IMG/VR virus record: IMGVR_UViG_3300042383_001692
Strand: one strand, 5' to 3'
DNA: 20,000 nt
Source of the DNA: an uncultured virus (IMG/VR IMGVR_UViG_3300042383_001692)
Taxonomy: Duplodnaviria; Heunggongvirae; Uroviricota; Caudoviricetes
This document shows positions 3,421 to 20,000 of this stretch, piece by piece (position 1 is the first letter of the stretch; the number at the start of each line of letters is the position of its first letter). Below the pieces are notes generated by a model. It made no database searches. It had not been told where the DNA came from and was given only the letters and a program-made list of their open reading frames with translations. A program made the position numbers and the translations under genes.

Positions 3421-3421
3421 T

Positions 3422-4602: not shown

Positions 4603-4661
4603 AGGTGTATTGTCTCCTTGTTTTGCCTGCAGAAAAACGGGCCTCTTTCGAGGCCCTCCAA

Positions 4662-4991: not shown

Positions 4992-5004
4992 TGTGTGTTT
5001 TCTC

Positions 5005-6354: not shown

Positions 6355-6356
6355 AA

Positions 6357-7088
6357 TTACTTTGAGCTCAAATGGCAGGCAAGCGCCACTTCGCTGACAA
6401 TGTCGGGAGACACATGTCCCCACACCGCCTGCGCCGCCGCTTCTTGCCCAATGGTTTCGGACAAACGCACAAACGCAAACGCTTCGCGTGACGTGATTGT
6501 CGGCTTCTTGTTGCCTTCACCGTAACTTCGCTTCACCATGTCACCGAGACCTGGCCTCCAGGAGTTCAGCGACTGAATGATGTTCGGATGCGGCGTAGTT
6601 ACTTTCAGACGCGCCTCAAACCGGTCCTGCAGCGCCTCCGGCAGCTTGCTGAACGGCGAATTGCTCGTAGCGATGATGCGCAGATCCGCATGCCGCTCCA
6701 CCGTTTCCCCCGTCATCAGCGTGATTTTCGCCGACTCCCGGCTGTCCAGGATCGACAGCAGAAAATCCAGCACCGCGTCCGATGCTCGCCCCAGCTCGTT
6801 CAGCACGAGGATTCCGCCGCTGCGGAAAGCCAGCATGATCGGGCCGTCGCGCCACACCCAGGCGCCGCTTTCAGTCGGGATGTAGGTGCCCTGATATTCC
6901 TGCACGGACGAATCCGGGTTAAACGTGATCTGATAAACAAAAAGCTTCTCTCCGTTCTTTCCGTTCAGACCGGCGTAGGTCTTGCCGAGGCCGGGAGCGC
7001 CCTCGATAAACGTGGTGAACGCATTGCGCACGCACATGTTCACAAGACTCCACTGCTCGACGTCGTTGCTCCAGTTCATAGTAGTCAT
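6357..7088 (-). CDS. MoxR/CbbQ/CobS-like AAA+ ATPase
   Basis: Walker A GAPGLGKT, WVWRDGPI, Walker B variant ILVLNE, RIIATSN and LPEALQDRF. AGGAGA SD. Confidence 0.9.
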   Translation of the reverse strand: MTTMNWSNDVEQWSLVNMCVRNAFTTFIEGAPGLGKTYAGLNGKNGEKLFVYQITFNPDSSVQEYQGTYIPTESGAWVWRDGPIMLAFRSGGILVLNELGRASDAVLDFLLSILDSRESAKITLMTGETVERHADLRIIATSNSPFSKLPEALQDRFEARLKVTTPHPNIIQSLNSWRPGLGDMVKRSYGEGNKKPTITSREAFAFVRLSETIGQEAAAQAVWGHVSPDIVSEVALACHLSSK

Positions 7089-7126
7089 AGGTTCTCCTTA
7101 TGCTTGGAGGGGTTCCATATCCCCCG

Positions 7127-7145
7127 CTCATGCGGCCGTCAGGCC
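7127..7145 (-). promoter_or_regulatory. TGAC-loop hairpin motif, copy upstream of the AAA/VWA operon
   Basis: GGCC-TGAC-GGCC-GCATGAG, one of 11 copies in the window. Confidence 0.7.
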
Positions 7146-7172
7146 AAAACTTCTCGAGTTTTCCAGCAAATC

Positions 7173-7442
7173 TCAAATTCCGACTTCTTTGCGCGCAGCT
7201 TCCATTTTTTCCCGGTTGTATACGTCAAACTTTTGCAGCCAGCTCCACGCGTACTTGTATCCCGGGGAATCGCTTTCTTCAGCCTTCACTTTTTCAATTT
7301 CCGAAAGCGAAACGCTTTCGTAAATTTCCATGAAATGGCGCATCATTTCAGGGTTTTCCTTGTAAGAAACAGTCAAATAGCAAATTGCCTTAAGGCGATT
7401 GCTGATTTTTCTCATCGACTTCCATTTCTGTTTTTCTTCCAT
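7173..7442 (-). CDS. hypothetical protein (~89 aa)
   Basis: ATG 7442 (MEEKQKWKS) preceded by AGGTGG. Confidence 0.6.
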   Translation of the reverse strand: MEEKQKWKSMRKISNRLKAICYLTVSYKENPEMMRHFMEIYESVSLSEIEKVKAEESDSPGYKYAWSWLQKFDVYNREKMEAARKEVGI

Positions 7443-7770
7443 GTATAACCACCTTTGCGTTTTTAAATAAACCAAACACTTTGGCGAGTTCAATGCGTTC
7501 GAGATTGGAAAGACCTGCAAAGTTTTCAGGAATTGCAATATCTATTCCTTCTCTTTGTGCGTCTCTAAACCTATCTTCACAGACAAGTTCATGTGGAAGA
7601 CGCAAAGCGGATGCTCGAAGTTTTGCACGCCCCGTCAACGAGACTTTTGTGCCAAATCTGATGCGAGCGGGACACGCTGCAGCTCCTATATACGGAATCT
7701 TTCCAGAAGCCATAGTTCCGCTGCCGGAAATTCCATCTCCTGAATCCGGCGAATATGCGGTAATTGACAT
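7390..7770 (-). CDS. 3D-domain (cell wall lytic transglycosylase-like) protein
   Basis: ITAYS...TMASGK...AACPARIRFGTKV...CEDR...IDI fits the 3D-domain pattern. Start chosen right after the stop of the upstream ORF; it could extend further upstream. Confidence 0.75.
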   Translation of the reverse strand: MSITAYSPDSGDGISGSGTMASGKIPYIGAAACPARIRFGTKVSLTGRAKLRASALRLPHELVCEDRFRDAQREGIDIAIPENFAGLSNLERIELAKVFGLFKNAKVVIHGRKTEMEVDEKNQQSP

Positions 7771-7777
7771 GAAATAT

Positions 7778-8095
7778 TCACGAAAAAGAATGCTCTTTTC
7801 TGAGAATTTCCACGATTTTGCAGAACTCTCCGCTTCGAAATTCAGCAACGCATTTTTTCCATGAGATGGAAATGGTATTGTGAAAAACCAGAAAATCGTC
7901 AGGATTTTCCAGAAGACGAAACGGAAGGGCTTCCATTGACTCTGAAATTTGAACAATTTGTTTGAGGCATGCACGTTTGCACGGGGAGTAAAGAGACTTG
8001 ATTCCATACTCCCGGGTAGAACGAGAGTAAACGAATAGCAGGACGGGAATTCCGTTCTGTTCTGCTGTGGACCATTGAATCAAATGCTCTTGCAT
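7778..8095 (-). CDS. hypothetical protein (~105 aa)
   Basis: ATG start; ends 7 nt before the chosen 3D gene start. Confidence 0.5.
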   Translation of the reverse strand: MQEHLIQWSTAEQNGIPVLLFVYSRSTREYGIKSLYSPCKRACLKQIVQISESMEALPFRLLENPDDFLVFHNTISISWKKCVAEFRSGEFCKIVEILRKEHSFS

Positions 8096-8212
8096 TAACT
8101 AGGATTGTAAAGTCCTGTTCAGTTTTGCAGACAAAAACACCCTTGCAAAACTTCCATGTTTTTGTAGAATAAAAACATTCGGTTTTGGTGTTGTTCTCCT
8201 CTTGGGATCTCC

Positions 8213-8252
8213 GGAGACCCCCGCATTCGGCAATGCGGGGGTTCTCTTTTTT
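8213..8252 (+). terminator. strong GC hairpin with a T-tract on the plus strand (may also protect the 3' end of the minus-strand mRNA)
   Basis: GAGACCCCCGCATT-CGGC-AATGCGGGGGTTCTC-TTTTT, directly after the stop of ORF 8252..8641. Confidence 0.6.
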
Positions 8253-8641
8253 CAGCGATATACGCCCATTTTGAGAAGCGGATATCTTGGGTGATGGATC
8301 CATCCGTCTTCGGAGATTTGAATTGCGGAATTTTCCATGTTTGCCGCTGCAGGGTTGAAATATGCATGAACGTAAATCCACGCATGGTCAATTTTTGCGT
8401 AGATTACAAACACGCATTTTTCAGCTCCTGTTTGCAGCTGAGCGAGGATTTCCTGCTTGCCTATTCTGTGCTTGGGCTTGGCCTTCACTTGCTCCGCATA
8501 GAGATTTTTGCGGAGATTTTCCAGGAATTCTCGACGTGGAACTTTCTTGTCGCCTAGCCACCCGTTGTCGTGCAACTGGGTGGCTAGATCGAACAAATCT
8601 CTGATTACATCCGTGGGAGCGAGCTTATCTTCCCACGGCAT
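8252..8641 (-). CDS. hypothetical protein (129 aa)
   Basis: GGAGG SD and ATG start; operon packing. Confidence 0.7.
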   Translation of the reverse strand: MPWEDKLAPTDVIRDLFDLATQLHDNGWLGDKKVPRREFLENLRKNLYAEQVKAKPKHRIGKQEILAQLQTGAEKCVFVIYAKIDHAWIYVHAYFNPAAANMENSAIQISEDGWIHHPRYPLLKMGVYR

Positions 8642-9053
8642 TTATTTCCTCCGCACTCAAATGCTTGATTAAACCCTGCATTACTGTGTCAACCAAAACA
8701 ACACGAATAGGCTTTTTCATGGCCAGCATTGTTTTGATCATGTGAGTAGTGCCCGGACTGCTGCCGTCATAAAACACAACGGCGGCATCTGCATATTCTG
8801 CCATGCGCTCATTTCGACGCATGCCCGCAGAACGTCCTTCTTCATCCCACTTTGCAGGCATCAAACAAATGCGGTATCCATGCTTCAACGCATACGCTCG
8901 ACCAAGGGTGTCTGGTCCCTGCGCTCCTCCGGATATCACTTCAATTCTGCATTCATTCTTTTTGTAAACAAGAAGATTATTCACAACCTCTTCTAGTTTG
9001 TCGTAATTGCAGAAAGACCGGCTTCCTGCAATTACAAGTCGAAACGTGTTCAT
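8625..9053 (-). CDS. YspA-like SLOG family protein (DUF2493)
   Basis: LVIAGSRSF...VISGGAQGPDTLG...PAKWDEEGRSAGMRRNERMAEYADAAVVFYDGSSPGT. ATGA overlap at 9050-9053. Confidence 0.9.
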   Translation of the reverse strand: MNTFRLVIAGSRSFCNYDKLEEVVNNLLVYKKNECRIEVISGGAQGPDTLGRAYALKHGYRICLMPAKWDEEGRSAGMRRNERMAEYADAAVVFYDGSSPGTTHMIKTMLAMKKPIRVVLVDTVMQGLIKHLSAEEINAVGR

Positions 9054-9319
9054 TTGTTCCTGCTCCATGCAACCAGCGGCGTGTTGAATAGATTCACACC
9101 GTTGGCCAGCATCTGTTCTGCATCCTTGACGTCGTCTTCAGAAAAAACCCAGTAGGACATGATCGCTCCATCCCACGGATCGTTCGTATACACGAGCGTC
9201 ATCCCGAGATTACTGGCGTCTTTCTGGTCAAGAGCGCTGTAATCGACCATGACCGCCTTGTTTTGCGATTCTGCAATTTTGATCAATTCAAGCACGATGT
9301 TCTCCTTGGCTGTCTTCAC
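9050..9319 (-). CDS. hypothetical protein (~89 aa)
   Basis: Tightly packed minus-strand ORF. Confidence 0.6.
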   Translation of the reverse strand: MKTAKENIVLELIKIAESQNKAVMVDYSALDQKDASNLGMTLVYTNDPWDGAIMSYWVFSEDDVKDAEQMLANGVNLFNTPLVAWSRNK

Positions 9320-9563
9320 ACTTCTGACAGGACAGAGTTCCTGGTCCCATCAGATACATGATTCCGTTTTTGTCTTTGACATAGAAATACTCTTTGACGG
9401 GAGTATTTGTTTCAAAAACCACAAACGGCTGCTGATCCGGATTGATTCCCATCCTAATGATGGTGTTCAGGTCGGCAACAATAAATTTGCTGCCGACCGA
9501 AAGCGTGGACAAAATGGTGTTATTCACAGTAAAGAGTGTATCTTCGCTCGTCCGAAGACACAA
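9288..9563 (-). CDS. hypothetical protein (~91 aa)
   Basis: Tightly packed minus-strand ORF; start uncertain. Confidence 0.5.
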   Translation of the reverse strand: MCLRTSEDTLFTVNNTILSTLSVGSKFIVADLNTIIRMGINPDQQPFVVFETNTPVKEYFYVKDKNGIMYLMGPGTLSCQKCEDSQGEHRA

Positions 9564-9771
9564 TTACCCTGTAGGAAGAAGAGTTGTCGCAAAACTGCGA
9601 CACGACAGAAACGTTGTCCTTGTTTTCCTTTTCCTGAAAGAGGCAGGAAAACATTTCGTTGCTGACTCCTCCATACCGCGTGCAGGCGCGGCCAAACAGA
9701 CTGCTTCTTTCCATCACGGTCCCTAGGATCATTGACGCAAAAATCACGATGGCTACTGCGATCTTTTTCAT
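9520..9771 (-). CDS. small protein with an N-terminal signal/TM segment
   Basis: MKKIAVAIVIFASMILG; GGAG SD. Confidence 0.6.
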   Translation of the reverse strand: MKKIAVAIVIFASMILGTVMERSSLFGRACTRYGGVSNEMFSCLFQEKENKDNVSVVSQFCDNSSSYRVIVSSDERRYTLYCE

Positions 9772-9786
9772 TTTTGACTCCAAAAC

Positions 9787-9820
9787 TCCGGGTTTTGTTG
9801 ACGCGGACCCGGAAACCGCG
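9787..9820 (-). ncRNA. H-type pseudoknot motif after a stop codon
   Basis: CGCGG-UU-UCCGGGU-CCGCG-UCAACAAA-ACCCGGA. Confidence 0.7.
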
Positions 9821-9825
9821 AGAAA

Positions 9826-10281
9826 CTAGAACGGAATGTCCTTGTCGAGAACGTCTTCGCGGGCAACAGAAGTCTCTTCCTTCTTCTGCTCTTCGCCCCA
9901 CTTGGCCAGCTCAAAGACCATCGGCTTGCTGTCAGGATCGTTGCGATCGCAGCGAATCCACTTGCCGGTGTCGTCCTGCTTTGCCGTAAACGGATTCAGC
10001 CACAGGCTGCCGCTCTTGTCGGGATTCAGCAGCCCGTAGACGGACGCCTTGGCCTTGAGGCCGCGGACTTCGCCGGTCTCCTCGTTCTCGATGCGCTCCC
10101 ACTTGAAGTTGTCTGCAAACCCGATCGGAACGGTAAGAGCCGCACTGAATTTCAGTTTGAACGTCACCACGCCGTCGGCCTGCGTGTAGGCCTGCCACGA
10201 CTGCGCGCGCAGGACCTCGCGCTTGCCGTCCTTGGTGCGAACATTGTTTCGATACAGCGTCACATTGTGTCGATTGCTCAT
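9826..10281 (-). CDS. beta-rich protein with an SSB-like acidic C-terminal tail (possible second SSB)
   Basis: AGGAGG SD; ends ...EDVLDKDIPF. Confidence 0.75.
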   Translation of the reverse strand: MSNRHNVTLYRNNVRTKDGKREVLRAQSWQAYTQADGVVTFKLKFSAALTVPIGFADNFKWERIENEETGEVRGLKAKASVYGLLNPDKSGSLWLNPFTAKQDDTGKWIRCDRNDPDSKPMVFELAKWGEEQKKEETSVAREDVLDKDIPF

Positions 10282-10337
10282 AAAAAACTACCTCCTGAAC
10301 TCTAATCACCATATGAACGAGCACGCGCCCGTTCACT

Positions 10338-10357
10338 CCTATACGCGCGTCAGCGCG
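10338..10357 (-). promoter_or_regulatory. TGAC-loop hairpin motif abutting a hammerhead
   Basis: CGCGC-TGAC-GCGCG-TATAGGAG (variant tail). Confidence 0.7.
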
Positions 10358-10421
10358 GTCTCCTCAGCGCAGGCATCACCTGCGGATCATCGGGGAGAAG
10401 AATCTCCCCTAGATTTCGACC
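10357..10421 (-). ncRNA. hammerhead ribozyme, type II (HH-A)
   Basis: GGUC-GAAA-UC UA GGGGAGA UUCU UCUCCCC GAU GA-UC^-CGCAGG UGAUG CCUGCG-CUGAGGA-GACC. Predicted cleavage after AUC, between 10385 and 10384. Confidence 0.92.
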
Positions 10422-10466
10422 TGGTTAATGGCGTCGGCATGCTTGCGCACACCGACGCCGACAAAA

Positions 10467-10658
10467 CTACCGCCAGCGCAGCTCTTCGAGGTCGTCCGAC
10501 CCCCAGAAACTGAGCTGACCACTGTTCCCCCCGAGCTTCTCGATGATCTTCCGTGCGAGTTCTTCGGCGTCCCAGTCGTAGTTCACGACCGTGACGTCGA
10601 TTTCCTCTTCGTTGAAGCTCCAATCAAACGACACTCGCGGATCCTTCTTCTTGCCCAT
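10467..10658 (-). CDS. small acidic hypothetical protein (63 aa)
   Basis: AGGAGG SD with ATG. Confidence 0.7.
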   Translation of the reverse strand: MGKKKDPRVSFDWSFNEEEIDVTVVNYDWDAEELARKIIEKLGGNSGQLSFWGSDDLEELRWR

Positions 10659-10670
10659 GTTTTTTGCCTC

Positions 10671-10880
10671 CTACCTGCAACTGCGCGTCCATCCATGCTC
10701 CGTGCGCGCATACACGGTTTCCTGGTGCATGGTTCTCAAATTACGAACGACGATTTCGCTGATTCGATCGTCATGCTGATAAAACGAAAGAAGGGCTCGA
10801 TACTCCTCGAGCCCTTCTGAACTGACGGTCACCACGTTCAGGCGACCGTCAGTTTGGAAGCGAAGTTCAATGACGTTCAT
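10671..10880 (-). CDS. hypothetical protein (69 aa)
   Basis: ATG 10880 (MNVIELRF); its GAGGAG SD is supplied by the hairpin motif. Confidence 0.7.
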   Translation of the reverse strand: MNVIELRFQTDGRLNVVTVSSEGLEEYRALLSFYQHDDRISEIVVRNLRTMHQETVYARTEHGWTRSCR

Positions 10881-10887
10881 TTTTCTC

Positions 10888-10907
10888 CTCATACGGCCGT
10901 CAGGCCG
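10888..10907 (-). promoter_or_regulatory. TGAC-loop hairpin motif (the loop TGA is the hicB stop codon)
   Basis: CGGCC-TGAC-GGCCG-TATGAG-GAG. Confidence 0.75.
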
Positions 10908-11118
10908 CGGGAACTGGAACCTCCATTCCCGCATCCAATGCCACTTCGATCCACAAGCGCATGGCATCCTCGATCATGGCGCCGACTTCCTCGAAGGTAT
11001 CCGCCTCAGTCGCGCAACCCGGCAATTCGCGAACGCGCGCGAACCACACCGGATGATCTCCGGAGAGATCCTGGGTCACTTCGATGGTGTAGGGAAGGTT
11101 CATATAGTGGTCTACCAT
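10900..11118 (-). CDS. hicB: HicB-like antitoxin, N-terminal domain only, orphan
   Basis: YMNLPYTIEV...WFARVRELPGCATEADTFEEVGAMIEDAMRLWIEVALDAGMEVPVP is a typical HicB. GAGGA SD. Confidence 0.88.
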   Translation of the reverse strand: MVDHYMNLPYTIEVTQDLSGDHPVWFARVRELPGCATEADTFEEVGAMIEDAMRLWIEVALDAGMEVPVPAA

Positions 11119-11130
11119 TTTTATCCTCAA

Positions 11131-11322
11131 CTAATCGCCGAGTTCCGCAATCTTGCGATCCACCAGAGCGCGGAAACTCTGGTTGTCGTAGCGGATTTCT
11201 CCGCTTTCGAGCGCCTTGTCGAACGCCTGAATGGCGCCCTTGAGGCCTTCGACGCCGGCGTTCACATCGCCGGCACGCGCAACTTCCATTGCTCGTTCGA
11301 CCATTCTTACAAACTTGTGCAT
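11131..11322 (-). CDS. small helical hypothetical protein (63 aa)
   Basis: GGAG SD with ATG; not HicA-like. Confidence 0.65.
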   Translation of the reverse strand: MHKFVRMVERAMEVARAGDVNAGVEGLKGAIQAFDKALESGEIRYDNQSFRALVDRKIAELGD

Positions 11323-11429
11323 TTTTTTACTCCAAAAAAAGACTCCGGTTTTGATAGAGAACCGGCAAACTCCGGGGTTTATGGCTATGCCCCCCTAACC
11401 GCACAGCGGGTTAAAACGGATAGAAGCAC

Positions 11430-11473
11430 AACCCTGTCAGGGAATCGAACCCTGATAAATCGCCAGACAGGGC
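11430..11473 (-). ncRNA. minimal tRNA-like structure (acceptor stem + T-arm)
   Basis: GCCCUGU-CUGGCGAUUUAU-CAGGG-UUCGAUU-CCCUG-ACAGGGU-U, with exact 7-bp + 5-bp geometry. Confidence 0.7.
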
Positions 11474-11519
11474 AATCTTCGTCCTACCGCATAGCTTGCA
11501 ATTCAAGTGAGGATTGCTC

Positions 11520-11539
11520 CTCATGCGACCGTCAGGTCG
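11520..11539 (-). promoter_or_regulatory. TGAC-loop hairpin motif
   Basis: CGACC-TGAC-GGTCG-CATGAG-GAG. Confidence 0.75.
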
Positions 11540-11660
11540 AATGCGCCTTGGCTCCGGAGATTCGACGTGGTCATCTCCAAACCAGAGTTGCGGCGCTTCT
11601 GTTGTCATCCGCGAGGGAAATAGTCCCGCATTTCTGCTGGTCCACTCTATTTCCATTACT

Positions 11661-11725
11661 GGTCTCGTCAGCACCCGCATTACGGGTGGATCATCGGGGA
11701 GCTTTCGCTCCCCTAGATTTCGACC
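11661..11725 (-). ncRNA. hammerhead ribozyme, type II (HH-B)
   Basis: GGUC-GAAA-UC UA GGGGAGC GAAA GCUCCCC GAU GA-UC^-CACCCG UAAUG CGGGUG-CUGACGA-GACC. Predicted cleavage between 11689 and 11688. Confidence 0.93.
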
Positions 11726-11734
11726 TTATGGGGA

Positions 11735-12031
11735 TCAGAACGGGATTTCCCCGTCCTGATCCTTCTCCTTTCCCTGCCAATACTTCTCGATTTCGGAATC
11801 GAGAAGGTTGGCAAGGAACATTGCCACGCGGAGTTCGTCGTCGCCCTGCTCGCGCGCAAGACGCACGAGCTCTTCGGTGATCTTGCAATCACCGAAATTC
11901 TCTAAATTGGTGACAAACTGATCGAGTTCGTCACTGATTTGGAGATATCCTCCAATCACGTTTGCGTCGTGCCACGCCGCCGTCAATTGAATGACGGCGA
12001 ACATGACTGCTTGGAAATTGTTGTCGTTCAT
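11735..12031 (-). CDS. hypothetical protein (98 aa) with an SSB-like tail
   Basis: ATG 12031 (MNDNNFQ) after GAGGAG; ends KDQDGEIPF. Confidence 0.75.
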   Translation of the reverse strand: MNDNNFQAVMFAVIQLTAAWHDANVIGGYLQISDELDQFVTNLENFGDCKITEELVRLAREQGDDELRVAMFLANLLDSEIEKYWQGKEKDQDGEIPF

Positions 12032-12038
12032 GATTCTC

Positions 12039-12058
12039 CTCATACGCCCGTCAGGGCG
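12039..12058 (-). promoter_or_regulatory. TGAC-loop hairpin motif
   Basis: CGCCC-TGAC-GGGCG-TATGAG-GAG. Confidence 0.75.
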
Positions 12059-12080
12059 TTTTTGCCAACAAAACCCCACT

Positions 12081-12141
12081 GGTCTCATCAGTGTGCGCAT
12101 CACGCACAGACCCCTTGCATCGCACGCAAGGGATTTCGACC
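12081..12141 (-). ncRNA. hammerhead ribozyme, type II (HH-C)
   Basis: GGUC-GAAA-UCCCUUGC GUGCGAU GCAAGGGG-UC^-UGUGCG UGAUG CGCACA-CUGAUGA-GACC. Predicted cleavage after GUC, between 12109 and 12108. Confidence 0.95.
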
Positions 12142-12150
12142 TGTCTCGGC

Positions 12151-12495
12151 CTAGGAAATGACTTCCCAGACCGAGAATTCAAACGACGCAGAAGAAATTT
12201 CTGCGTCACTGTATTCCGCAACGCCTTCGCGTCGCGGCAAACCGCGAACCGACATGACCACGAGCTTGTCGTTCAGCCCAAGCTTGACCATCGGCGCCTT
12301 CGCTGGCACTTCGACCATCAGGCCGAAGCGCCTCTGCATTGCGATGATCGTTGCGCCATGCGAGGGGTTCAACGCCGGGATGACCCCAGCGTTGACCAGT
12401 TCGCGGACGGCCTCGACCGTGACGATCTTGCGGGTGACCGTCACGTCACCCGCAAACATGCCGTCGGCGACGGCAAAGCTAAAGTAAGTGCTCAT
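12151..12495 (-). CDS. probable DUF1874 / AcrIII-1-like ring nuclease (STIV B116-like), divergent
   Basis: 114 aa. YFSFAVADGMF / ALNPSHGAT (His46) / VKLGLNDKLVV / LPRREGVAEYSDAEI / FEFSVWEV follow the order and spacing of the B116-family blocks as recalled (NAFS.NM / AIGH..T / V.L..GD..(I/L)V / RL.EG.VL...EI / FY.V). GGAGG SD. Confidence 0.68.
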   Translation of the reverse strand: MSTYFSFAVADGMFAGDVTVTRKIVTVEAVRELVNAGVIPALNPSHGATIIAMQRRFGLMVEVPAKAPMVKLGLNDKLVVMSVRGLPRREGVAEYSDAEISSASFEFSVWEVIS

Positions 12496-12533
12496 TTTGC
12501 CTCCAAAAGAACTACTGCACACAAGACTCTACT

Positions 12534-12592
12534 GGTCTCATCAGCACACGCATCACGTGTGTATACCCCTTAGCTAGAGGGGTATTTCGACC
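12534..12592 (-). ncRNA. hammerhead ribozyme, type II (HH-D)
   Basis: GGUC-GAAA-UACCCCU CUAGCUA AGGGGUA-UA^-CACACG UGAUG CGUGUG-CUGAUGA-GACC. Predicted cleavage after AUA, between 12562 and 12561. Confidence 0.95.
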
Positions 12593-12594
12593 TG

Positions 12595-12940
12595 GACTCA
12601 CTACTGATTAGCTAGATCAATAGTGAGTCACAGCACAAGATTTCGGCTTGTGCACACCGAACGCGCACGACCGGTCCACCGGCATCTCATTGCGCGCTCC
12701 ACTACATTTCAACGCATTGCTTGTATTTGCAACTACAAACAACGCATTGAAATGCGCTCTTGCTTCCTGGTGCAAGAGAACCATCTCTCAACCAACACTG
12801 ACTCGCGGCCTCGCAAAGCAATCCCGAACGGATTGAGTCTCTGCTTTGCGACCGGGTCTCGCGGGCGACCCTGAACTGCCCGAGCACTTGCTCAGACGAT
12901 CCGCGAAACCGGATGAGAGCTACGACGCAGCCCTCAGCCA
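12595..12940 (-). ncRNA. large structured non-coding RNA of unknown class (~350 nt)
   Basis: About ten consecutive hairpins, including a 21-bp stem (12705-12754) whose plus-strand C/A mismatches are all G-U pairs on the minus strand. No convincing ORF with an SD. Confidence 0.75.
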
Positions 12941-12945
12941 AAACT

Positions 12946-13021
12946 CTCATACGCACGTCAGTGCTTTCGCACGGACACTGCGTATGCGGAACTCAAGAGC
13001 TCCTCATACGCACGTCAGTGC
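12946..13021 (-). promoter_or_regulatory. two tandem TGAC-loop hairpin motifs (12946-12964, 13003-13021)
   Basis: Both read GCAC-TGAC-GTGC-GTATGAG and lie immediately upstream of the ncRNA. Confidence 0.75.
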
Positions 13022-13044
13022 TTTACACTAACTGAGAACTCACT

Positions 13045-13105
13045 GGTCTCATCAGTGCACGCTTTACGTGCAGATCTCCCGCATCGCACGCGGGAGATTT
13101 CGACC
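13045..13105 (-). ncRNA. hammerhead ribozyme, type II (HH-E)
   Basis: GGUC-GAAA-UCUCCCGC GUGCGAU GCGGGAGA-UC^-UGCACG UAAAG CGUGCA-CUGAUGA-GACC. Predicted cleavage between 13073 and 13072. The first G is shared with the upstream TAG stop. Confidence 0.95.
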
Positions 13106-13302
13106 TACAAAGAAACGATGATCAGGCCGAGGTTGCCTCCGCAGACGAACTCGGTCTTGAGCCCTCCGAGCTCAAAGAGGACTTGCTGGGCAAGGGCGTC
13201 TTCGCCCTCGCGCAGATGCCACACGACATTCCCTCGATCTCCGTAGTCAAGGGCGTCCATCACGCCCTCGACCGTCTGCCACTTCACCTTGTTCTCGTTC
13301 AT
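13105..13302 (-). CDS. hypothetical protein (65 aa)
   Basis: AAGGAG SD; ATG 13302 (MNENKVKW). Confidence 0.7.
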   Translation of the reverse strand: MNENKVKWQTVEGVMDALDYGDRGNVVWHLREGEDALAQQVLFELGGLKTEFVCGGNLGLIIVSL

Positions 13303-13369
13303 AACACTCCTTCGGGAAAGCTCTGCGGCCTCCCATATGCGAACAATTAAGAGAGCACACAAGCTTCTC

Positions 13370-13447
13370 CTCATACGCACGTCAGTGCTTTCGCACTACA
13401 CATGCGTATCAGGAGGAAGCAAAATGCTCTCATACGCCCGTCAGGGC
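13370..13447 (-). promoter_or_regulatory. two TGAC-loop hairpin motifs (13370-13388, 13429-13447)
   Basis: GCAC-TGAC-GTGC-GTATGAG and GCCC-TGAC-GGGC-GTATGAG. Confidence 0.75.
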
Positions 13448-13551
13448 AGAGTCTCCACTCGAGACTCGCTCTGTTATGTATCACCTCCCTAACCGTTGCT
13501 GTTAGGCGAAGGAAGGGAGGTGAATACGACATCCTGTGAACCGAAAGGGTA

Positions 13552-14079
13552 TCACCGGATGGGAACCCACTCGAGGGTGACATTGTCACGCTCGGTGAGT
13601 TCGGCCGAGTTTAGGGCGAGAACCCGGCAAGCCAGCTGGGTGGCCTTCTGCTGCCAGAGCTGGACCTCCTCGTAGAAGAAGGTCTGGCGTCTGGTGAGCG
13701 GCTTGCCCTGGACCAGGCGCCGCTCGATGTCGCGCTGGGTGGACTCCCGGAGGCGCGAACCATCCATGGGGCGCCACGCCGCGATCTGGCCGGCGTAGGC
13801 CCATTCTCGCATTTTGGGGTCCGGCTTGACCCCGTGGCGCTTCGCGTATTCTGCGAAGGCCTGCGATACCGCCTCAGGGCGGATGAATATATCCCTGCGC
13901 ACATCGTCCTTGCGCACAGGAATATTCACGAACCGACCGTGGTTGACCACGGCGGCTCGGTGCCCGGGAGGAGGTTTGCCGAAGTTCTCCTCCGTTGCGG
14001 AAGGCTTGGCCGCGCTCGGCACGGCTGCCCTCCGGGTCGTGGTGGGCGCTCCACGACCAAAAGCTGGTTTCTCGTTCAT
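13552..14079 (-). CDS. basic hypothetical protein (~175 aa)
   Basis: Start taken at ATG 14079 (MNEKPAFG). The upstream extension in the ORF track runs through hairpins and a T-tract. Confidence 0.7.
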   Translation of the reverse strand: MNEKPAFGRGAPTTTRRAAVPSAAKPSATEENFGKPPPGHRAAVVNHGRFVNIPVRKDDVRRDIFIRPEAVSQAFAEYAKRHGVKPDPKMREWAYAGQIAAWRPMDGSRLRESTQRDIERRLVQGKPLTRRQTFFYEEVQLWQQKATQLACRVLALNSAELTERDNVTLEWVPIR

Positions 14080-14176
14080 GCTCGCCCCCTTCGGGCGCTC
14101 GGCCCCTAGGGGGGCCTCGCCCCCTTCGGGGGCTTCGCCCCATGAAATAAAAAGCCTCGCATTGCTGCGAAGCTTA

Positions 14177-14249
14177 CTCATACGCGCGTCAGCGCGCAGA
14201 AGAGAAAGACGGGATTCCCCGTTCTTCTCCTCATACGCGCGTCAGCGCG
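14177..14249 (-). promoter_or_regulatory. two TGAC-loop hairpin motifs (14177-14196, 14230-14249)
   Basis: Both read CGCGC-TGAC-GCGCG-TATGAG. They are the first copies downstream of the polymerase gene. Confidence 0.75.
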
Positions 14250-14395
14250 CATAGGGAGACACTCAGTTGCGGCTACCCTTCCGAGTCGTCGCGCTGCTGG
14301 GCATCCAGCCGCGCCGGTCCGGACATCCGAAGGCGGACGCCCGAGTAAATCGTTTGCCCGTACGGATGCGCCTGAGCAAGGGCAGGCATTCGTAG

Positions 14396-14430
14396 AAAAA
14401 TAAAAAAGAGGGCGGTCATAGACCACCCTC
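14396..14430 (-). terminator. intrinsic terminator of the WYL-polymerase operon
   Basis: GAGGGTGGTC-TAT-GACCGCCCTC-TTTTTTATTTTT. Confidence 0.8.
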
Positions 14431-14475
14431 CACTGGAGCAGGAGATGATTCCAGTCACCTCCTGCCCGCTACACA

Positions 14476-17277
14476 CTACATCACGTCCGTTTCGATCACG
14501 CCGTCATCGGCGCTGGCGTAGTCGAAACCGCCGTCATCCGCCCACTCCGGCTCCGGAGTGTCTCCGTCCAGCGAAATCTCGAAGAACTCGGCCATCACTC
14601 TCCCCGTAAAGGTGATTTCCACGCTCTTCATCCCGGGAACGGTAGCGAGTTTGACGTGGTACATTCCCGTCGGAACAACCGCGCCAACCATGCCATGCGT
14701 CTGTCCGTCGCCCACGCGAACAGACAGCGGATACTTTGGCGTTTTTGCGCTTGTATCAACGACTTCGACAACCGTATACACGGTGTCGCTGTCCATATAC
14801 TTAGCGCGGAATTCCATGCCGCCCATGATCTTGCCGATCATGCCGGCCCCCACTGCGCGTCTCTCGGCAATGCTGTCCTTTCGGGCAATCAGCATCCGCG
14901 CGACTACTTCCGGAAGTGCAAACTTCATTGCAAATCCGGCGTTGTCGCCGCGAGAGAACGCAGCCCACAGCGCGCTGGCGGCAGATTCCAGCCACGCCGT
15001 GTTCTCGTTCTCCTTGCCAAGATTCATCTCGACCGCCTTGTCGCGCCAAACCTTTCGATAGCCTTCGAAAAGCTCAGCGCGCAGCATGTCGGCCATTTCC
15101 AACGCGATCTTCTTTGCCTTAAGATCGTTGGCAATGTCGCCCATGCGCTTATACAAGCGGTCGACCGCCCAGTTTGCCCACTTAAAGCCCTCTCCCGGGA
15201 TCTCCTCAATCCACCCGGCAAAGAACTTGTTGTCCAGCGTGGACAACTGGATGAGTGGCACCTCATCCTCGTGGGCGCGGATAAACGCCGCCAGCGGCAT
15301 CAGCTCCTCGTCAGGAGCGTCCACCTGACTGAAGAACCTGCTGGGCAGGATCGGCTGTCCTGGCTCCACCACCGGCCGGCCGTTAGCGTCTCCAAAGAAG
15401 CGCGCGGTCTCCACCGCTGCGTCCTCCGCCGTGCCCGCAAAGAGGGTGAACGGCTTAATGTTCTTCCTCTTCTGGAGCTGGCGGTAAGCGTGCATGGAAA
15501 GAGTAATGCCATACTCCTCCTGCGCCTCCTTGGAGAGTTTGCGGACAAGCTTCATGTCCGCAGTGGCAGCCTTCTTGACGCTGTCCACCGCCTTCTGAAG
15601 CTCGACCCGCAACGCGTCGATTCTTTCGGTCGCCAAAGCCTTGGCGTGCGCCACCATGCGCTCTATGACGACCCATTTCTGATTGACGTAGTCAATCAGG
15701 CCGATGCCGGCGGCCATTGACTGCGCAATCATCTTGCTACGATTGGTCGGCGGAACCGCCTTCTGCCGCAGCTTCTCTTCGCTAATCGGCAGTCCCTCGA
15801 CCGTCTTACGCATCTCGACCACGACCTCGTCAGGTCGCAGGATGGCAAAGGCGTCGCCATCGAAATCGAGAGCCGCACGATTCATCGTGCGTTCGTTGAC
15901 CCACGCCTCGTACCACCGCACACGTGGGTCAGCGTGTACGATGACTGCGACCATTTCATTCCGGTGGGCAAACGGGTACCGGATGGCCACAGTCTTAACG
16001 CCGTCTCGGCCTGTCTTTCCAAACAGGTGCTGGAACACCTTTGGATTGACAGCGACGACGTTGTCGCCCAAGCTTCTGTTGCAGACCGCGCGGAATCTCC
16101 ACGCGTAGATTCCCAGACCTGCCAGGATCTGGTAACCCACAGTGGCGACCCACTCGGTCAGCGCGGCAACCATCATTTTGCTGCGCATCAGCCGCGTGTC
16201 GCCGATAGCGACGCACACAGCTGCAAACAGCCTGATGATGTCGAACTGCTGGAGGTTTCCCTCCTCGTCTCGCAGCGACGTGCCCCGGCCGGCCAGCCAG
16301 CGCACGTCGCTGAGACGCTCTCGCAGTTCGCCCAGCTTTGCCGATACGAGGTCGTGCGCCTTGTTCACGACTTCGCTCGACATCCACTGGGTCACCTGTG
16401 GACCGATCAGCATGGGGCCGGCCAGGTCCTCGTCACCATTGACGATGCCGAACCCCATCATCACCTCGTGCACGCCGTCCGGAAGCACAATGCCCTTGTT
16501 GTGCTTGAGCGTGCCCCTGGGCATTACCAGGTCCACCCCGTCCGGCAGCCGAGCCGGAATCAGGGTGCCTTTGCCCAGGATCCACTTGGACGAGTCCTCA
16601 TTGTCCAAGTGGAGGATCGCGCGGAACTGCGGGTCGTTCTCAAACACGACCTTGTGCTGCGCAGCCCACGCGCGATCAATCAACCCCTGGCCGTCGCCGA
16701 TGCGGGTAAAGCCAGGATCGTCATCCTTGCATACCAGCACCCGGGCGGTCACGTGAAAGTAACCACCCCGCAGGGGCGTATGCAGCGCTCCAGGGCGCAC
16801 GGCGTCTCCCGCGTCCGGGAACATCGCCTCCATGCGCTTGGCCCAGTAAAAGTCCACCACCGGGAGCACTGCATTATTTGACTTGGCGGCCTGCGTCATG
16901 TACCGCAGCCAGCCGCATTTGCGCTCATCCGAGGGGCGGACCGGCCAGTCCACCTCAGGGATGTCGATGCCCCTGTCCTGAATGATGTCGAGGGCGAGAG
17001 TGGAGATCTCTTCCTCATCGGCATCAATGAGACTTGGGGCCAACTGTACGCCCGCGATGAGAGCGCCTTCCTCGCGGGCAATGCATGAAGCGTAGTCCCG
17101 GCGCACCCACCGGTATCCGCTTGGCTTGAGCGGACCCGGCTTGGCGTTGGACAAGCCCATGCGCTTGAGAACTGGCCAGTTGGTCACCAGCTCTCCGTTG
17201 CGTCCCTTCATCACCGGGACGACCACGAATACGTCGTGGATCGTCAAGGTGACGATAGGGACTTCGAACATCTTCAT
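14476..17277 (-). CDS. single-subunit two-barrel (DPBB) RNA polymerase, YonO / cellular RdRP-like (~933 aa)
   Basis: Ordered motifs GDGQGLI, PQFR...GKG, MPRGTLK, IRYP, catalytic DFDGD (15853-15867), IGLI and QKAVDSVKK match the conserved blocks of QDE-1-type RdRPs and phage YonO. GGAGG upstream of ATG 17277. Confidence 0.88.
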   Translation of the reverse strand: MKMFEVPIVTLTIHDVFVVVPVMKGRNGELVTNWPVLKRMGLSNAKPGPLKPSGYRWVRRDYASCIAREEGALIAGVQLAPSLIDADEEEISTLALDIIQDRGIDIPEVDWPVRPSDERKCGWLRYMTQAAKSNNAVLPVVDFYWAKRMEAMFPDAGDAVRPGALHTPLRGGYFHVTARVLVCKDDDPGFTRIGDGQGLIDRAWAAQHKVVFENDPQFRAILHLDNEDSSKWILGKGTLIPARLPDGVDLVMPRGTLKHNKGIVLPDGVHEVMMGFGIVNGDEDLAGPMLIGPQVTQWMSSEVVNKAHDLVSAKLGELRERLSDVRWLAGRGTSLRDEEGNLQQFDIIRLFAAVCVAIGDTRLMRSKMMVAALTEWVATVGYQILAGLGIYAWRFRAVCNRSLGDNVVAVNPKVFQHLFGKTGRDGVKTVAIRYPFAHRNEMVAVIVHADPRVRWYEAWVNERTMNRAALDFDGDAFAILRPDEVVVEMRKTVEGLPISEEKLRQKAVPPTNRSKMIAQSMAAGIGLIDYVNQKWVVIERMVAHAKALATERIDALRVELQKAVDSVKKAATADMKLVRKLSKEAQEEYGITLSMHAYRQLQKRKNIKPFTLFAGTAEDAAVETARFFGDANGRPVVEPGQPILPSRFFSQVDAPDEELMPLAAFIRAHEDEVPLIQLSTLDNKFFAGWIEEIPGEGFKWANWAVDRLYKRMGDIANDLKAKKIALEMADMLRAELFEGYRKVWRDKAVEMNLGKENENTAWLESAASALWAAFSRGDNAGFAMKFALPEVVARMLIARKDSIAERRAVGAGMIGKIMGGMEFRAKYMDSDTVYTVVEVVDTSAKTPKYPLSVRVGDGQTHGMVGAVVPTGMYHVKLATVPGMKSVEITFTGRVMAEFFEISLDGDTPEPEWADDGGFDYASADDGVIETDVM

Positions 17278-17293
17278 TTGCCTGCCGGACCTC

Positions 17294-17800
17294 CTAAGCC
17301 GGCTTCCATTGAAGAATTCGCGCCACCACGAACGTGCGATCTTCATTGCGCAGGTGGCAGCGCGCAATGAGACCGAGTTCAGACCAGGACAGAGGGGTGA
17401 CGACCCGCTCTGTCACCTCGCCTCGAATCCGCCCGTCATAGCGGATCCAGAGCTTGGCTCCGGTCTTCATGGCCTCGCTCGCGGCCATGGTGAACTCAAC
17501 GTTGTCCGTGTGGACCACCTGCGAGCGCAGGTTGGCGGGGCAGTCCGGTCCGTACACCGGCACGCCCTGCGCGGCCATCCAGGCTGCGACCTTGGCCGGG
17601 TTGGCAGCCCGGTCATAGTCGCGGCGTGAATCGCCACGCATCCACACGCGGGTGCCGTTCGTCGGGAACTCCACGGCCAGCACCCCGAGCGCCGTGAGCT
17701 CCTGCCACGTCTTCAACCGACTAGACGCGTCGGTTGGGCTGAACAGTGGCTCGTTCAGCCGAAGAATTGCCCGCAGTTTTGACGGCAAAACAACCGTCAT
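17294..17800 (-). CDS. WYL-domain protein (168 aa)
   Basis: C-terminal AMKTGAKLWIRY...ERVVTP...LIARCHLRNEDRTFVVARI is a WYL domain. AAGGAGG SD before ATG 17800. Confidence 0.85.
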   Translation of the reverse strand: MTVVLPSKLRAILRLNEPLFSPTDASSRLKTWQELTALGVLAVEFPTNGTRVWMRGDSRRDYDRAANPAKVAAWMAAQGVPVYGPDCPANLRSQVVHTDNVEFTMAASEAMKTGAKLWIRYDGRIRGEVTERVVTPLSWSELGLIARCHLRNEDRTFVVARILQWKPA

Positions 17801-18020
17801 AGGGCACCTCCTTTCAACTACGGTTTTCGTGAGTCGCAGGTTCCGCTCCTGCCTAGCCGCCATTGCGGCACCGTTCGTTCGCCAGAACGGGCTTACATCT
17901 ATGCCGTCCTGGGTTGTTTCGAAACCCGAAGCTCCGCCAAAACTTTGCCGAAGAAAACGCAAAGAGGGGAGAGGGGAATGCCCCGCGCAGGCTCGTCAGC
18001 CTTGCAGGACACATGGCATG

Positions 18021-18076
18021 AAAAATAAAAAAAAGGGAAAATAAAAAAGCAGGGTCAGCCGTAAAGCCGCCCTGCT
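18021..18076 (-). terminator. terminator hairpin with a doubled TTTTATTTT tract
   Basis: AGCAGGGCGGC-TTTACG-GCTGACCCTGCT-TTTTTATTTTCCCTTTTTTTTATTTTT. Confidence 0.8.
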
Positions 18077-18085
18077 TAATTCGTC

Positions 18086-18120
18086 GGGGTTTTGTTGACG
18101 CAGGTGATCCCCTTCCTGCA
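18086..18120 (-). ncRNA. H-type pseudoknot motif after a stop codon
   Basis: UGCAGG-AA-GGGG-AUCA-CCUGCG-UCAACAAAA-CCCC. Confidence 0.7.
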
Positions 18121-18125
18121 ACTGG

Positions 18126-18491
18126 CTAGTTCAAACGAGCGGCGAACCGCTTTTCGAACTGACTTGCCACCCAGTTACCTTCCGAGAAAGAGGGCCTTCC
18201 CTCCGGAAGGCGGTTTTGGACTATCAGGTGGTGAAACTCTTCACCACCATTGAACGCTTCAATTCCTTCCCACGCCTGCCTGTAAAGAAACAGGTCTTGA
18301 ACCTGCCCCCAGGCTGGGCGGAGCATCGGCACCGAATCCGTGACCACTACCAGGAAGTGGCCTTCTACTATCGACAAAGCGGTCAGTTCTACGAGCTTTT
18401 CGGCCAGGGCGATGTTGTCGCCGCTGGCCTCCAGAATGCGCTGCTCTCCGGTGTTTCTGTTCCGGAACAGCGCAAAGGTTGTTGTGGGCAT
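18126..18491 (-). CDS. hypothetical cassette protein (121 aa)
   Basis: AAAGGAGG SD; ATG 18491 (MPTTTFALF). Confidence 0.8.
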   Translation of the reverse strand: MPTTTFALFRNRNTGEQRILEASGDNIALAEKLVELTALSIVEGHFLVVVTDSVPMLRPAWGQVQDLFLYRQAWEGIEAFNGGEEFHHLIVQNRLPEGRPSFSEGNWVASQFEKRFAARLN

Positions 18492-18503
18492 TTGCCCTCC
18501 TTT

Positions 18504-18565
18504 GCTCCTGTGAGCATAATTGCTTGGCGCTGTATCCGTAAACACGGAGCTCAGCCAACTCAATC
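18504..18565 (-). repeat. conserved leader hairpin, copy A
   Basis: 31-nt core 18526-18556 is identical to 18927-18957, and the flanking stems covary. Confidence 0.8.
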
Positions 18566-18568
18566 ACT

Positions 18569-18623
18569 AAAATAAAAAGAAAGAGAAAATAAAAAAGCAG
18601 GGTCGACCGCGAGGCCGCCCTGC
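18569..18623 (-). terminator. terminator hairpin with a doubled TTTTATTTT tract
   Basis: GCAGGGCGGCC-TCGC-GGTCGACCCTGC-TTTTTTATTTTCTCTTTCTTTTTATTTT. Confidence 0.8.
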
Positions 18624-18632
18624 CTGATCGTC

Positions 18633-18667
18633 GGGGTTTTGATATCGCAGGTGATCCCCTTCCTGCG
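18633..18667 (-). ncRNA. H-type pseudoknot motif after a stop codon
   Basis: CGCAGG-AA-GGGG-AUCA-CCUGCG-AUAUCAAAA-CCCC. Confidence 0.7.
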
Positions 18668-18673
18668 CGCCGG

Positions 18674-18895
18674 CTACTCTCCGTAAAGGTACCAGCGCAG
18701 GTTTGAGGCCTGCTTGGAAATCTTTACAAATTGTTCTTGGAGAGAAGCCAGCTGCGGGGCCAGCCCTTCCCCGTCTTGCACTTCCAAAGCGGATGCGACC
18801 GCCACCCACTTCGCTTCCTCGATGGAGGTGAAGATCTCTGCCATCTCCACCTCCAGCGCCATAAGTTTGAACGACAGACTCTCGTGGTCCATCAT
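18674..18895 (-). CDS. small acidic helical cassette protein (73 aa)
   Basis: AAAGGAGG SD with ATG. Confidence 0.8.
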   Translation of the reverse strand: MMDHESLSFKLMALEVEMAEIFTSIEEAKWVAVASALEVQDGEGLAPQLASLQEQFVKISKQASNLRWYLYGE

Positions 18896-18904
18896 TCCTC
18901 CTTT

Positions 18905-18966
18905 GCCCCTGTGGGCCTAACTGCCCGGCGCTGTATCCGTAAACACGGAGCTCAGCCGGCTCAGTC
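18905..18966 (-). repeat. conserved leader hairpin, copy B
   Basis: GACTG-AG-CCGG-CTG-AGC-TCCGT GTTT ACGGA-TA-CAG-CG-CCGG-G-CAGTT, then GCCC-ACAG-GGGC next to the SD. Confidence 0.8.
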
Positions 18967-18969
18967 ACC

Positions 18970-19026
18970 AAAAAAATAAAAAGGAGAAAAATAAAAAGGG
19001 AAACGCCGCCGCAAGCGCTCCCCTTT
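18970..19026 (-). terminator. terminator-like hairpin with a doubled TTTTATTTT tract
   Basis: AAAGGGGAGCG...CGTTTCCCTTT followed by two T-tracts, each interrupted by a single A. Confidence 0.65.
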
Positions 19027-19037
19027 GCCGTGATTGA

Positions 19038-19070
19038 CGGGGTTTTGGTCACGCAGACCCCGGAACTGCG
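19038..19070 (-). ncRNA. H-type pseudoknot motif after a stop codon
   Basis: CGCAG-UUC-CGGGGU-CUGCG-UGACCAAA-ACCCCG. Confidence 0.7.
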
Positions 19071-19079
19071 GACGGAGAC

Positions 19080-19661: not shown

Positions 19662-19806
19662 GACGGCCTCCTTTTGCCACACAACGCTCCACAACACTCT
19701 TCTTACCACTGCGTCAACCTGGTCTGCCTCTGAGACGAGGTCTTATCGAGAATGGTTGACCGGCAGTGGCAAAGCCTGTATTGCTTCTGCGCTGTGCGGC
19801 AGCAAT

Positions 19807-19851
19807 GACTCTGGCACTGTATCCGCACAACACGGAATCAGCCACTCAGTC
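19807..19851 (-). repeat. conserved leader hairpin, copy C (diverged)
   Basis: GACT-GAG-TGG-CTG-AT-TCCGTG TTG TGCGGA-TA-CAG-TG-CCA-G-AGTC. Confidence 0.7.
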
Positions 19852-19855
19852 GCTC

Positions 19856-19914
19856 AATAAAAAAATAAAAAGGAGGAAAATAAAAACGGGACACGGCGTC
19901 AAATGCCGTGTCCC
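19856..19914 (-). terminator. terminator hairpin with a doubled TTTTATTTT tract
   Basis: GGGACACGGCA-TTTG-ACGCCGTGTCCC-GTTTTTATTTT, then a second T-tract interrupted by A. Confidence 0.75.
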
Positions 19915-20000
19915 TGTGAACTATTGTAGGTTTTGGTATCGCGGGTTTGCCCTTATCCCGCGGAAAGCTTCTCCTTTACCTGCTTTCGAGGTGTGCATGC

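Follow-up and report, generated by a model that had tools for sequence, protein, structure and literature searches.

A gene-less, hairpin-rich unit between hammerhead ribozymes in the operon of an uncultivated freshwater phage

What is the role, in a phage operon, of a hammerhead-bounded unit that folds strongly as RNA and holds no gene? The question is raised by a phage-like contig known from freshwater metagenomes and uncultivated (IMG/VR record IMGVR_UViG_3300042383_001692); the whole stretch analyzed here, 20,000 nt long, is referred to as the window. The window codes for ThyX, SSB, an AAA ATPase, tRNA-Arg and several PHROG families, with transcription on the minus strand, and the PHROG matches, ThyX, SSB and the tRNA support the original prediction that this DNA is borne by a phage. 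All or part of positions 10300–14300, where the unit lies, is present in 20 listed runs from 14 studies, and the sample labels of these 20 runs are nearly all freshwater, lake or aquatic. Read on the minus strand, the gene-less interval contains, in this order, hammerhead E, a leader in which a hairpin motif occurs twice, a 346-nt body and hammerhead D (Table 1). We find that the feature is real, non-coding and outside Rfam and that its fold is not exceptional for its surroundings; the new element is a gene-less unit within a known hammerhead-array arrangement.

Table 1. Coordinates of the unit, its parts and the surrounding features (window numbering)
Feature	Position	Strand	Remarks
Gene-less interval	between 13105 and 12495	minus	~610 bases, from the stop of a 91-codon frame (13105) to the start of a 114-codon gene (12495)
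Hammerhead E, type II	13045–13105	minus	predicted cut after C17 at 13073; downstream product starts at 13072
Leader of the unit	12941–13044	minus	two tandem copies of GCAC-UGAC-GUGC-GUAUGAG at 13021–13003 and 12964–12946
Non-coding structured body	12595–12940	minus	346 nt; ~8 hairpins
Body hairpins P1 to P4	P1 12936–12914; P2 12909–12856; P3 12851–12811; P4 ~12795–12758	minus	
Body hairpins P5 to P8	P5 12755–12702; P6 12697–12658; P7 12652–12632; P8 12628–12595	minus	
Variable middle part (P5 and P6)	12658–12770	minus	sequence almost wholly different in L110, both hairpins retained
Hammerhead D, type II	12534–12592	minus	predicted cut after A17 at 12562; released RNA ends at 12562
Predicted released RNA	12562–13072	minus	511 nt; cut sites read from the hammerhead cores
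82-codon open frame	12702–12950	minus	84 codons from the GTG at 12956; judged spurious
Other hammerheads of the window	C 12141–12081; B 11725–11661; A 10421–10357	minus	
Hairpin motif, 5' ends	14248, 14195, 13447, 13388, 13021, 12964, 12057, 11538, 10906, 10356, 7145	minus	
933-aa polymerase-like protein	14476–17277	minus	invariant DFDGD; 1.5 kb upstream of the unit

For comparison, we used the DNA of two relatives of the polymerase-like gene, both from JGI metagenomes: locus L110, whose polymerase protein is 98% identical to that of the window (~92% identity at the DNA level), and locus L111, at 47% protein identity. L111 has three hammerheads between small genes, without the ORF-less unit and without the leader motif. 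At least four variants of the unit itself are known, each from another sample, namely the window, L110, X2 and X16; its full sequence was compared for two of them, the window and L110, and the consensus structure discussed below is derived from this pair. Searches for further homologues returned none from GenBank phages (blastn in distant mode), from IMG/VR (by neighboring protein, polymerase alignment or tandem leader motif) or from GTDB genomes (by polymerase alignment and by tandem motif), and the JGI metagenomes gave L110 and L111 only. Searching IMG/VR with three exact pieces or patterns of the RNA gave no homologue, the 4 matches being unrelated palindromes, while a scan of IMG/VR for the single motif gave 109 single matches, the 80 of which that were inspected look like chance.

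The genes in the vicinity of the unit include, in the hammerhead B–A segment, a small gene (10900–11130, minus strand) with a HicB-like antitoxin domain (Pfam PF15919, E 2e-8), preceded by a 63-codon gene (11322–11131) in which the divergence from L110 consists mostly of conservative changes. The small proteins encoded at 9826–10281 and 11735–12022 (minus strand) terminate in ...DKDIPF and ...DGEIPF, respectively; these ends, we presume, recall the C-terminal tip of bacterial SSB and may mimic the SSB tail, the SSB-family gene proper being located at 4662–5057. Farther away, the window encodes ThyX at 702–1472 (PF02511, E 3e-50) and a dATP/dGTP diphosphohydrolase N-terminal domain at 3046–3456 (PF18909, E 6e-27), both on the minus strand; the latter domain is known from phages with modified bases, though the window showed no PurZ. 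Hammerhead B is followed by another stretch without an ORF, ~320 nt long (11660–11340, minus strand) and 100% identical in L110. Within it, a 7-bp acceptor-like stem and a T-arm (CAGGGUUCGAUUCCCUG) form a tRNA-like minihelix (11473–11431), for which the sole Rfam match was a weak one (18 bits, E 0.37), with the model of the tRNA-like mascRNA, and ARAGORN made no call.

The proposed bracketing of the body by hammerheads is well founded: both E and D have a complete type II core and stems, with (i) the CUGAUGA...GAAA core, (ii) A15.1–U16.1 and a C or an A at position 17, (iii) closed stems I and III and (iv) an open 4-bp stem II. By direct reading and by a scripted check, all five hammerheads of the window share the CUGANGA and GAA cores, G10.1–C11.1, A15.1–U16.1, a C or an A at position 17, closed stems I and III, an open stem II with the sequence GGUC/GACC, and an inner part consisting of two hairpins one base apart, the sequence of stem III varying between copies. 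Altogether, 11 of the 14 pattern candidates from the window, L110 and L111 passed the hammerhead check; among the three that failed, 19164–19080 is a false candidate and the other two fail only in the fold chosen by RNAfold. Compared to the type II hammerheads described by Rfam Hammerhead_II (RF02276), those found here form a sub-type that scores below threshold: E, as an 86-nt query, matches the full model (1–66) with 21.5 bits (E 0.011), the gathering score being 37. No Hammerhead_II match appeared when the 851-nt region or the whole window was scanned with Rfam, and none of 11 loci holds a hammerhead of this sub-type at the Rfam gathering score. Further arrays of the sub-type are present at 9 IMG/VR loci; the largest, in L119, packs 8 hammerheads into 4.2 kb.

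Reading the cores also redefines the ends of the RNA. Positions 12940 and 12595, originally thought to be precise ends, are not RNA ends: the cores place the cuts after 13073 and 12562, so that the released RNA would extend from 13072 to 12562 and measure 511 nt, not 346 nt. This 511-nt RNA folds with −242.7 kcal/mol (z −9.65). Since type II hammerheads are cut between two closed hairpins, each released piece would start with stem I of the upstream ribozyme and finish with stem III of the downstream one. We infer that these hairpins protect the new ends of the pieces, and such built-in end protection would offer a simple reason for the dominance of the type II layout in phage arrays. Note that the P8 loop (12616–12608) and the loop of hammerhead D stem III (12578–12570) share, on the minus strand, the same 9 bases, UCUAGCUAA, the UAGCUA core of which is self-complementary; a kissing interaction between the two neighboring loops, or pairing between two molecules, is therefore conceivable. 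Taken simply as a repeated 9-mer, UCUAGCUAA is not significant (E 20).

The leader does carry two tandem hairpin motifs ahead of the body, as initially noticed, and these belong to a family of 11 copies in the window, all on the minus strand, with the consensus G-S-N-C UGAC G-N-S-C GUAUGAG(GAG). The 4-bp stem of the motif co-varies between five versions (GCAC/GUGC, GCCC/GGGC, GCGC/GCGC, GGCC/GGCC and GACC/GGUC). The motif is often tandem, with a spacing of 53–59 nt, lies mostly directly before a ribosome-binding site and an AUGAAC start, and has all its copies downstream of the polymerase-like gene. Two roles are conceivable, that of a promoter for the phage polymerase and that of a site at which a protein binds the RNA; in the former case, the RNA would begin near 12950 or 13010 and not at 13072. 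The number of copies before the body varies, with two in the window and one in L110 and X16, the latter skipping 57 bases between 12943 and 13001.

A search of 1.84 billion representatives for relatives of the 933-aa polymerase-like protein gave only 28 at E ≤ 0.001; identities to its relatives range from 95 to 45%. The window copy belongs to no Pfam or PHROGs family, and a profile of its close relatives found no match in the PDB. A profile of 21 distant relatives gave weak best matches in the PDB, namely an RNA-dependent RNA polymerase at E 0.036 and RPB1 at E 0.29, the latter around its metal-binding motif; one of the 21 relatives has a Pfam RdRP match (E 2e-4), and a language-model look-up pointed in the same direction. 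The protein is probably a remote relative of the two-barrel RNA polymerases, which include the RNA-dependent enzymes of RNA silencing. As a lead, we regard it as a probable YonO-like enzyme (PMC5467207), with both barrels in a single chain. Upstream of the polymerase-like gene, between small genes, repeated units (18016–18120, 18564–18666, 18965–19056 and 19854–19889, together with 14395–14412) display on the minus strand a conserved 40-nt block, a GC hairpin and then long T-rich runs; they look like terminator-plus-promoter modules.

The body proved highly structured, in line with the original prediction. Its minus strand folds with a minimum free energy (MFE) of −162.4 kcal/mol, compared to −121.9 ± 5.2 kcal/mol for 100 dinucleotide shuffles (z −7.78), and none of the 100 shuffles folds as well; the plus strand of the body has an MFE of −121.9 kcal/mol (z −5.83). 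The preference of G–U pairs for the minus strand is genuine: the minus-strand fold contains 20 of them and one A·C single mismatch, versus 2 G–U pairs and 8 A·C mismatches in the plus-strand fold. This asymmetry indicates that the stems are kept in a single strand of minus polarity and not as DNA palindromes.

Of the ten helices proposed for the body, eight are recovered by at least one of two folds, that of the single sequence and the consensus of the two sequences. The recovered helices are GAGGGCUGC/GUAGCUCUC, GUCUGAGC/GCUCGGGC, UCGCAAAGCA/UGCUUUGCGA, CUCUUGC/GCAAGAG, the 21-bp stem, GCGCGCA/UGCGCGU, GCACAAG/CUUGUGC and the 14-bp stem; GGGUC/GACCC is seen only in the consensus fold, while AUCCG/CGGAU, one of the five pairs of which is G·G in L110, appears in neither. 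The three proposed pseudoknots all involve positions without variation. Body positions 32–43 have two competing partners, positions 65–85 in both single-sequence folds and positions 131–139 in the consensus fold.

When the body was compared to Rfam 15 (4227 models), nothing reached the gathering score, and at E ≤ 10 the only matches were chance-level ones to microRNA-type hairpins, the best being mir-2831 with 24.7 bits versus 90. The body is thus absent from Rfam 15, as the failure to assign it by eye had suggested, and the idea that the unit might be a ribozyme found no match besides the two flanking hammerheads. The best complement to the RNA elsewhere in the window is a perfect one of 14 nt (17359–17372, E 0.02), which we take as a chance match, the site being identical in L110 and the RNA side different there. 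The roles of decoy or scaffold originally offered are a guess, and the presumed abundance found no support: no RNA run with positions 10300–14300 is listed among 22 runs, and the RNA-Seq-labelled runs X19 and X20 (share 0.05) contain short pieces that are mostly unlike the window, none of them within 12562–13072.

The predicted non-coding nature of the unit stands. The 82-codon frame that runs through part of it starts at an ATG inside the leader motif. In the L110 counterpart, stops fill all three frames, and only 5 codons are open from the motif ATG onward; L110, X2 and X16 also lack one base at 12876. Finally, a search of 5.8 billion clusters for protein relatives of the 82-codon frame found none sharing enough words with it, the control for this search being the neighboring 114-aa frame (12151–12495, minus strand), which gave 27 relatives at 49–100% identity. 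Note that nine of these 27 relatives carry Pfam PF08960 and that the window copy falls below the Pfam threshold.

Comparison with L110 shows that the hairpins are retained in a diverged copy. The alignment between the window and L110 is a mosaic in which blocks without any difference (100% identity) alternate with patches of 46–95% identity, and the RNA unit is one of the diverged patches: 88 of 100 columns are identical in the 5' part of the RNA and 46 of 100 in 12745–12659, and from 12658 through hammerhead D, itself 100% identical, the window and L110 are the same. The L110 body displays the same hairpin layout (z −7.15) though two of the hairpins, P5 and P6, differ almost completely in sequence. 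The two-sequence consensus fold has 110 pairs, all of them kept in both sequences, with 10 changed on both sides and none broken; as a control, sliding the partner by 1–3 columns left 0–4 double changes. Nine of the 10 double changes fall in P5/P6, a segment that may be a replaced module and not a diverged copy; neither the rest of the window nor the examined loci contain a recognizable source of the L110 variant hairpins. The remaining double change, the sole one in the 5' domain (38:79), belongs to an alternative helix and is one-sided in X2, since X2 has 9 of the substitutions of L110 without the change at position 38. When the MFE fold of the window alone is taken as a reference, the 39 pairs touched by differences comprise 24 kept pairs, 12 broken ones and 3 on gaps. 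L110 also contains, at 7599–7935, an extra unit absent from the window, in which a separate hammerhead accompanies an 83-codon gene of lower GC, indicating that whole hammerhead-bounded units are gained or lost.

Strong folding is not restricted to the gene-less unit. The adjoining coding units have z-scores of −8.04 (D–C, 12529–12143) and −11.08 (C–B, 12076–11727), with rows of 10–14-bp hairpins inside their reading frames. Per 200 nt of minus strand, the mean z is −3.9 over 10401–20000 versus −1.4 over 1–10400 (Mann–Whitney p about 1e-7); it is also −3.9 within the 2.8-kb polymerase-like gene, and two 200-nt windows inside the RNA have z-scores of −4.5 and −5.5. The hyper-folded half, 10401–20000, is the GC-richer half of the window. 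Because the neighboring coding units are equally folded, strong folding characterizes the operon as a whole, and given this regional norm the fold alone is no proof of a dedicated function of 12940–12595. The D–C unit is instructive in this respect. Its L110 counterpart has 24 base differences, amounting to 11 synonymous and 7 non-synonymous codon changes; 4 of the 14 touched pairs are kept and 10 are broken, yet the stability is −194.7 kcal/mol in L110 versus −191.8 kcal/mol in the window. Pairs change and stability holds, so stability as such seems to be selected across the operon. About 10 kb of transcripts far more folded than expected by chance point to a strong, unexplained pressure on RNA structure in this phage lineage.

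How could the unit be used? In the reading that we tentatively prefer, the minus-strand operon would consist of small genes, each bounded by type II hammerheads, and the self-cutting of E and D would free a 511-nt RNA (13072–12562) with a 5'-OH and a 2',3'-cyclic phosphate. This RNA would carry a 5' hairpin (stem I of E), a 3' hairpin (stem III of D) and a body of about eight stable hairpins, which are retained at the RNA level. It would be stable and act in trans early in infection, its likeliest role being to sequester an RNA-binding factor of the host or of the phage. Cutting, stability and, above all, function in trans are what we infer, and a stable, hairpin-capped RNA freed from an early operon to act in trans in this way is put forward as a possibility short of even chances. 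It is supported by the better conservation of touched pairs in the body (24/39) than in the coding neighbor (4/14). Also in its favor are the completeness of both flanking hammerheads, the strong folds of the window and L110 bodies, the G–U bias, the non-coding character, the double changes among the consensus pairs, the occurrence in four variants and the gain and loss of whole units. Besides, the ORF-less unit has been kept among small proteins of the host-takeover type (the HicB-like one and the family with 27 relatives), which suggests that it is used. Against it stand the strong folding of the coding units, as an operon-wide pressure could by itself preserve the hairpins, the derivation of the consensus structure from the two sequences compared, the concentration of nine double changes in a possibly replaced segment, the one-sided state of the tenth in X2 and the loss in L110 of the 14-nt complementarity.

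Nearly as likely, and likewise doubtful when taken alone, is a structured spacer or relic, that is, a formerly coding unit that has lost its frame, or filler, without any trans function; its hairpins would be kept by an operon-wide pressure such as the need to shield untranslated RNA from nucleases or from Rho-dependent termination. The region-wide hyper-folding, which includes long coding genes, fits this explanation, as does the D–C unit, a coding one that keeps its stability though 10 of its 14 touched pairs change. The same explanation is suggested by the leader, which has the motif of coding units with a weakened ribosome-binding site (GAGAG for GAGGAG) but lacks a suitably spaced start codon, and by the fact that the unit is the most diverged part of the window–L110 alignment, with several indels. 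However, 350 useless bases are seldom kept in phage genomes and the unit is present in four variants, and individual pairs are better kept in the body than in the coding neighbor. Moreover, the other hammerhead arrays examined are not hyper-folded: the 14 inter-hammerhead segments of L111 to L120, whose coding status was assessed by longest-ORF fraction only, have z-scores from +1.9 to −4.6, none being below −4.6, and the hyper-folding of the window half is not seen in L111 or in L112–L120. Four of these segments have an ORF fraction of 0.50–0.57; that of L111 holds two genes, and the others are in L116, L117 and L118. An apparently ORF-less segment in L119 is coding, its stop overlapping the next hammerhead.

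The released RNA could also be circular, which we regard as improbable. After excision, the two halves would re-form a hybrid hammerhead made of stem I of E and stem III of D, with stem II closing the body, and, as happens in retrozymes and viroid-like RNAs, either the ribozyme acting in reverse or an RtcB-type ligase of the host would join the ends. When folded without constraints, the 511-nt RNA indeed adopts such a hybrid hammerhead, in which GACC of E pairs with GGUC of D with a probability of 0.57 and CUGAUGA and GAAA are left open; the C–B unit closes likewise (0.90), and the stem II sequence is common to all five hammerheads of the window. On the other hand, the closure probability is only 0.03 for the D–C unit, the stem II sequences differ between neighboring hammerheads in L111, and circular or spliced array products were sought and none found, according to Perreault et al. 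2011 (PMC3088659). As no translation is involved, the unit is a clean test case for the circularization of excised pieces.

The remaining readings are much less probable. If the unit were a DNA-level element (a replication origin, a packaging site or protein-binding palindromes) and its RNA fold a by-product, the many serial inverted repeats, and the 6-base palindrome TAGCTA in two loops, would be accounted for; against this very unlikely explanation stand the 20 G–U pairs of the minus strand, which are A·C mismatches on the other strand, an MFE 40 kcal/mol better on the minus strand, the absence of direct repeats (iterons) within the body and the similar hairpins that run through coding genes. 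An equally long shot is a DNA-launched viroid-like RNA, which the hammerheads would excise, which the hybrid hammerhead or a ligase of the host would close into a circle, and which the 933-aa polymerase of the phage would use or copy; were it true, the extreme folding of the operon would reflect a free-RNA life stage. Least credible of all is a small protein made from the 82-codon frame (12950–12702) or a shorter one, for which speaks the opening of that frame from the ATG in the leader motif, and which is contradicted by the stops in the three frames of L110, the deletion shared by L110, X2 and X16, the lack of a relative among the clusters searched and the lack of a start codon at the proper distance from the ribosome-binding site.

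If the unit does release a trans-acting RNA, the implications go beyond this phage: the purpose of phage hammerhead arrays has been in question since 2011, and a gene-less unit would mean that arrays can deliver RNA products and not only trim messages. Arrangements of this kind have been engineered. RiboJ-type synthetic insulators place a self-cleaving ribozyme and a hairpin ahead of a ribosome-binding site, and in ribozyme-flanked guide RNAs two ribozymes free an exact RNA; the unit described here differs from these engineered systems in being natural and part of an array.

Among natural systems, the closest are the clustered type II hammerheads that flank genes in phages and prophages, known since 2011 (Perreault et al., PMC3088659), for which a role in the processing of long transcripts was proposed and spliced or circular products were considered and none found. 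The novelty originally claimed must be qualified in this light: hammerhead arrays between phage genes are not new, but a gene-less unit inside an array, without an Rfam family, is. Like the published arrays, the present one consists of several type II hammerheads in the same orientation between small early genes, thought to yield gene-length pieces; unlike their gene-holding units, one unit here has no gene and, instead, a 346-nt hairpin array. With retrozyme and viroid-like circular RNAs (PMC7229834, PMC8781251), the unit shares two hammerhead cuts that would bound the RNA, end halves predicted to be able to re-form one hammerhead, and a non-coding, highly paired RNA of a few hundred nucleotides. 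It differs from them in that it belongs to a DNA phage operon, has a single polarity and type II instead of type I or III hammerheads, and has a predicted fold that is branched and not rod-like. Finally, as with the HDV-like theta ribozymes beside phage tRNA genes (PMC10879173), a small self-cleaving ribozyme would set the end of a phage non-coding RNA; the ribozyme class is different, however, and whereas the theta ribozyme releases a tRNA of known role, the RNA released here would be one without a family.
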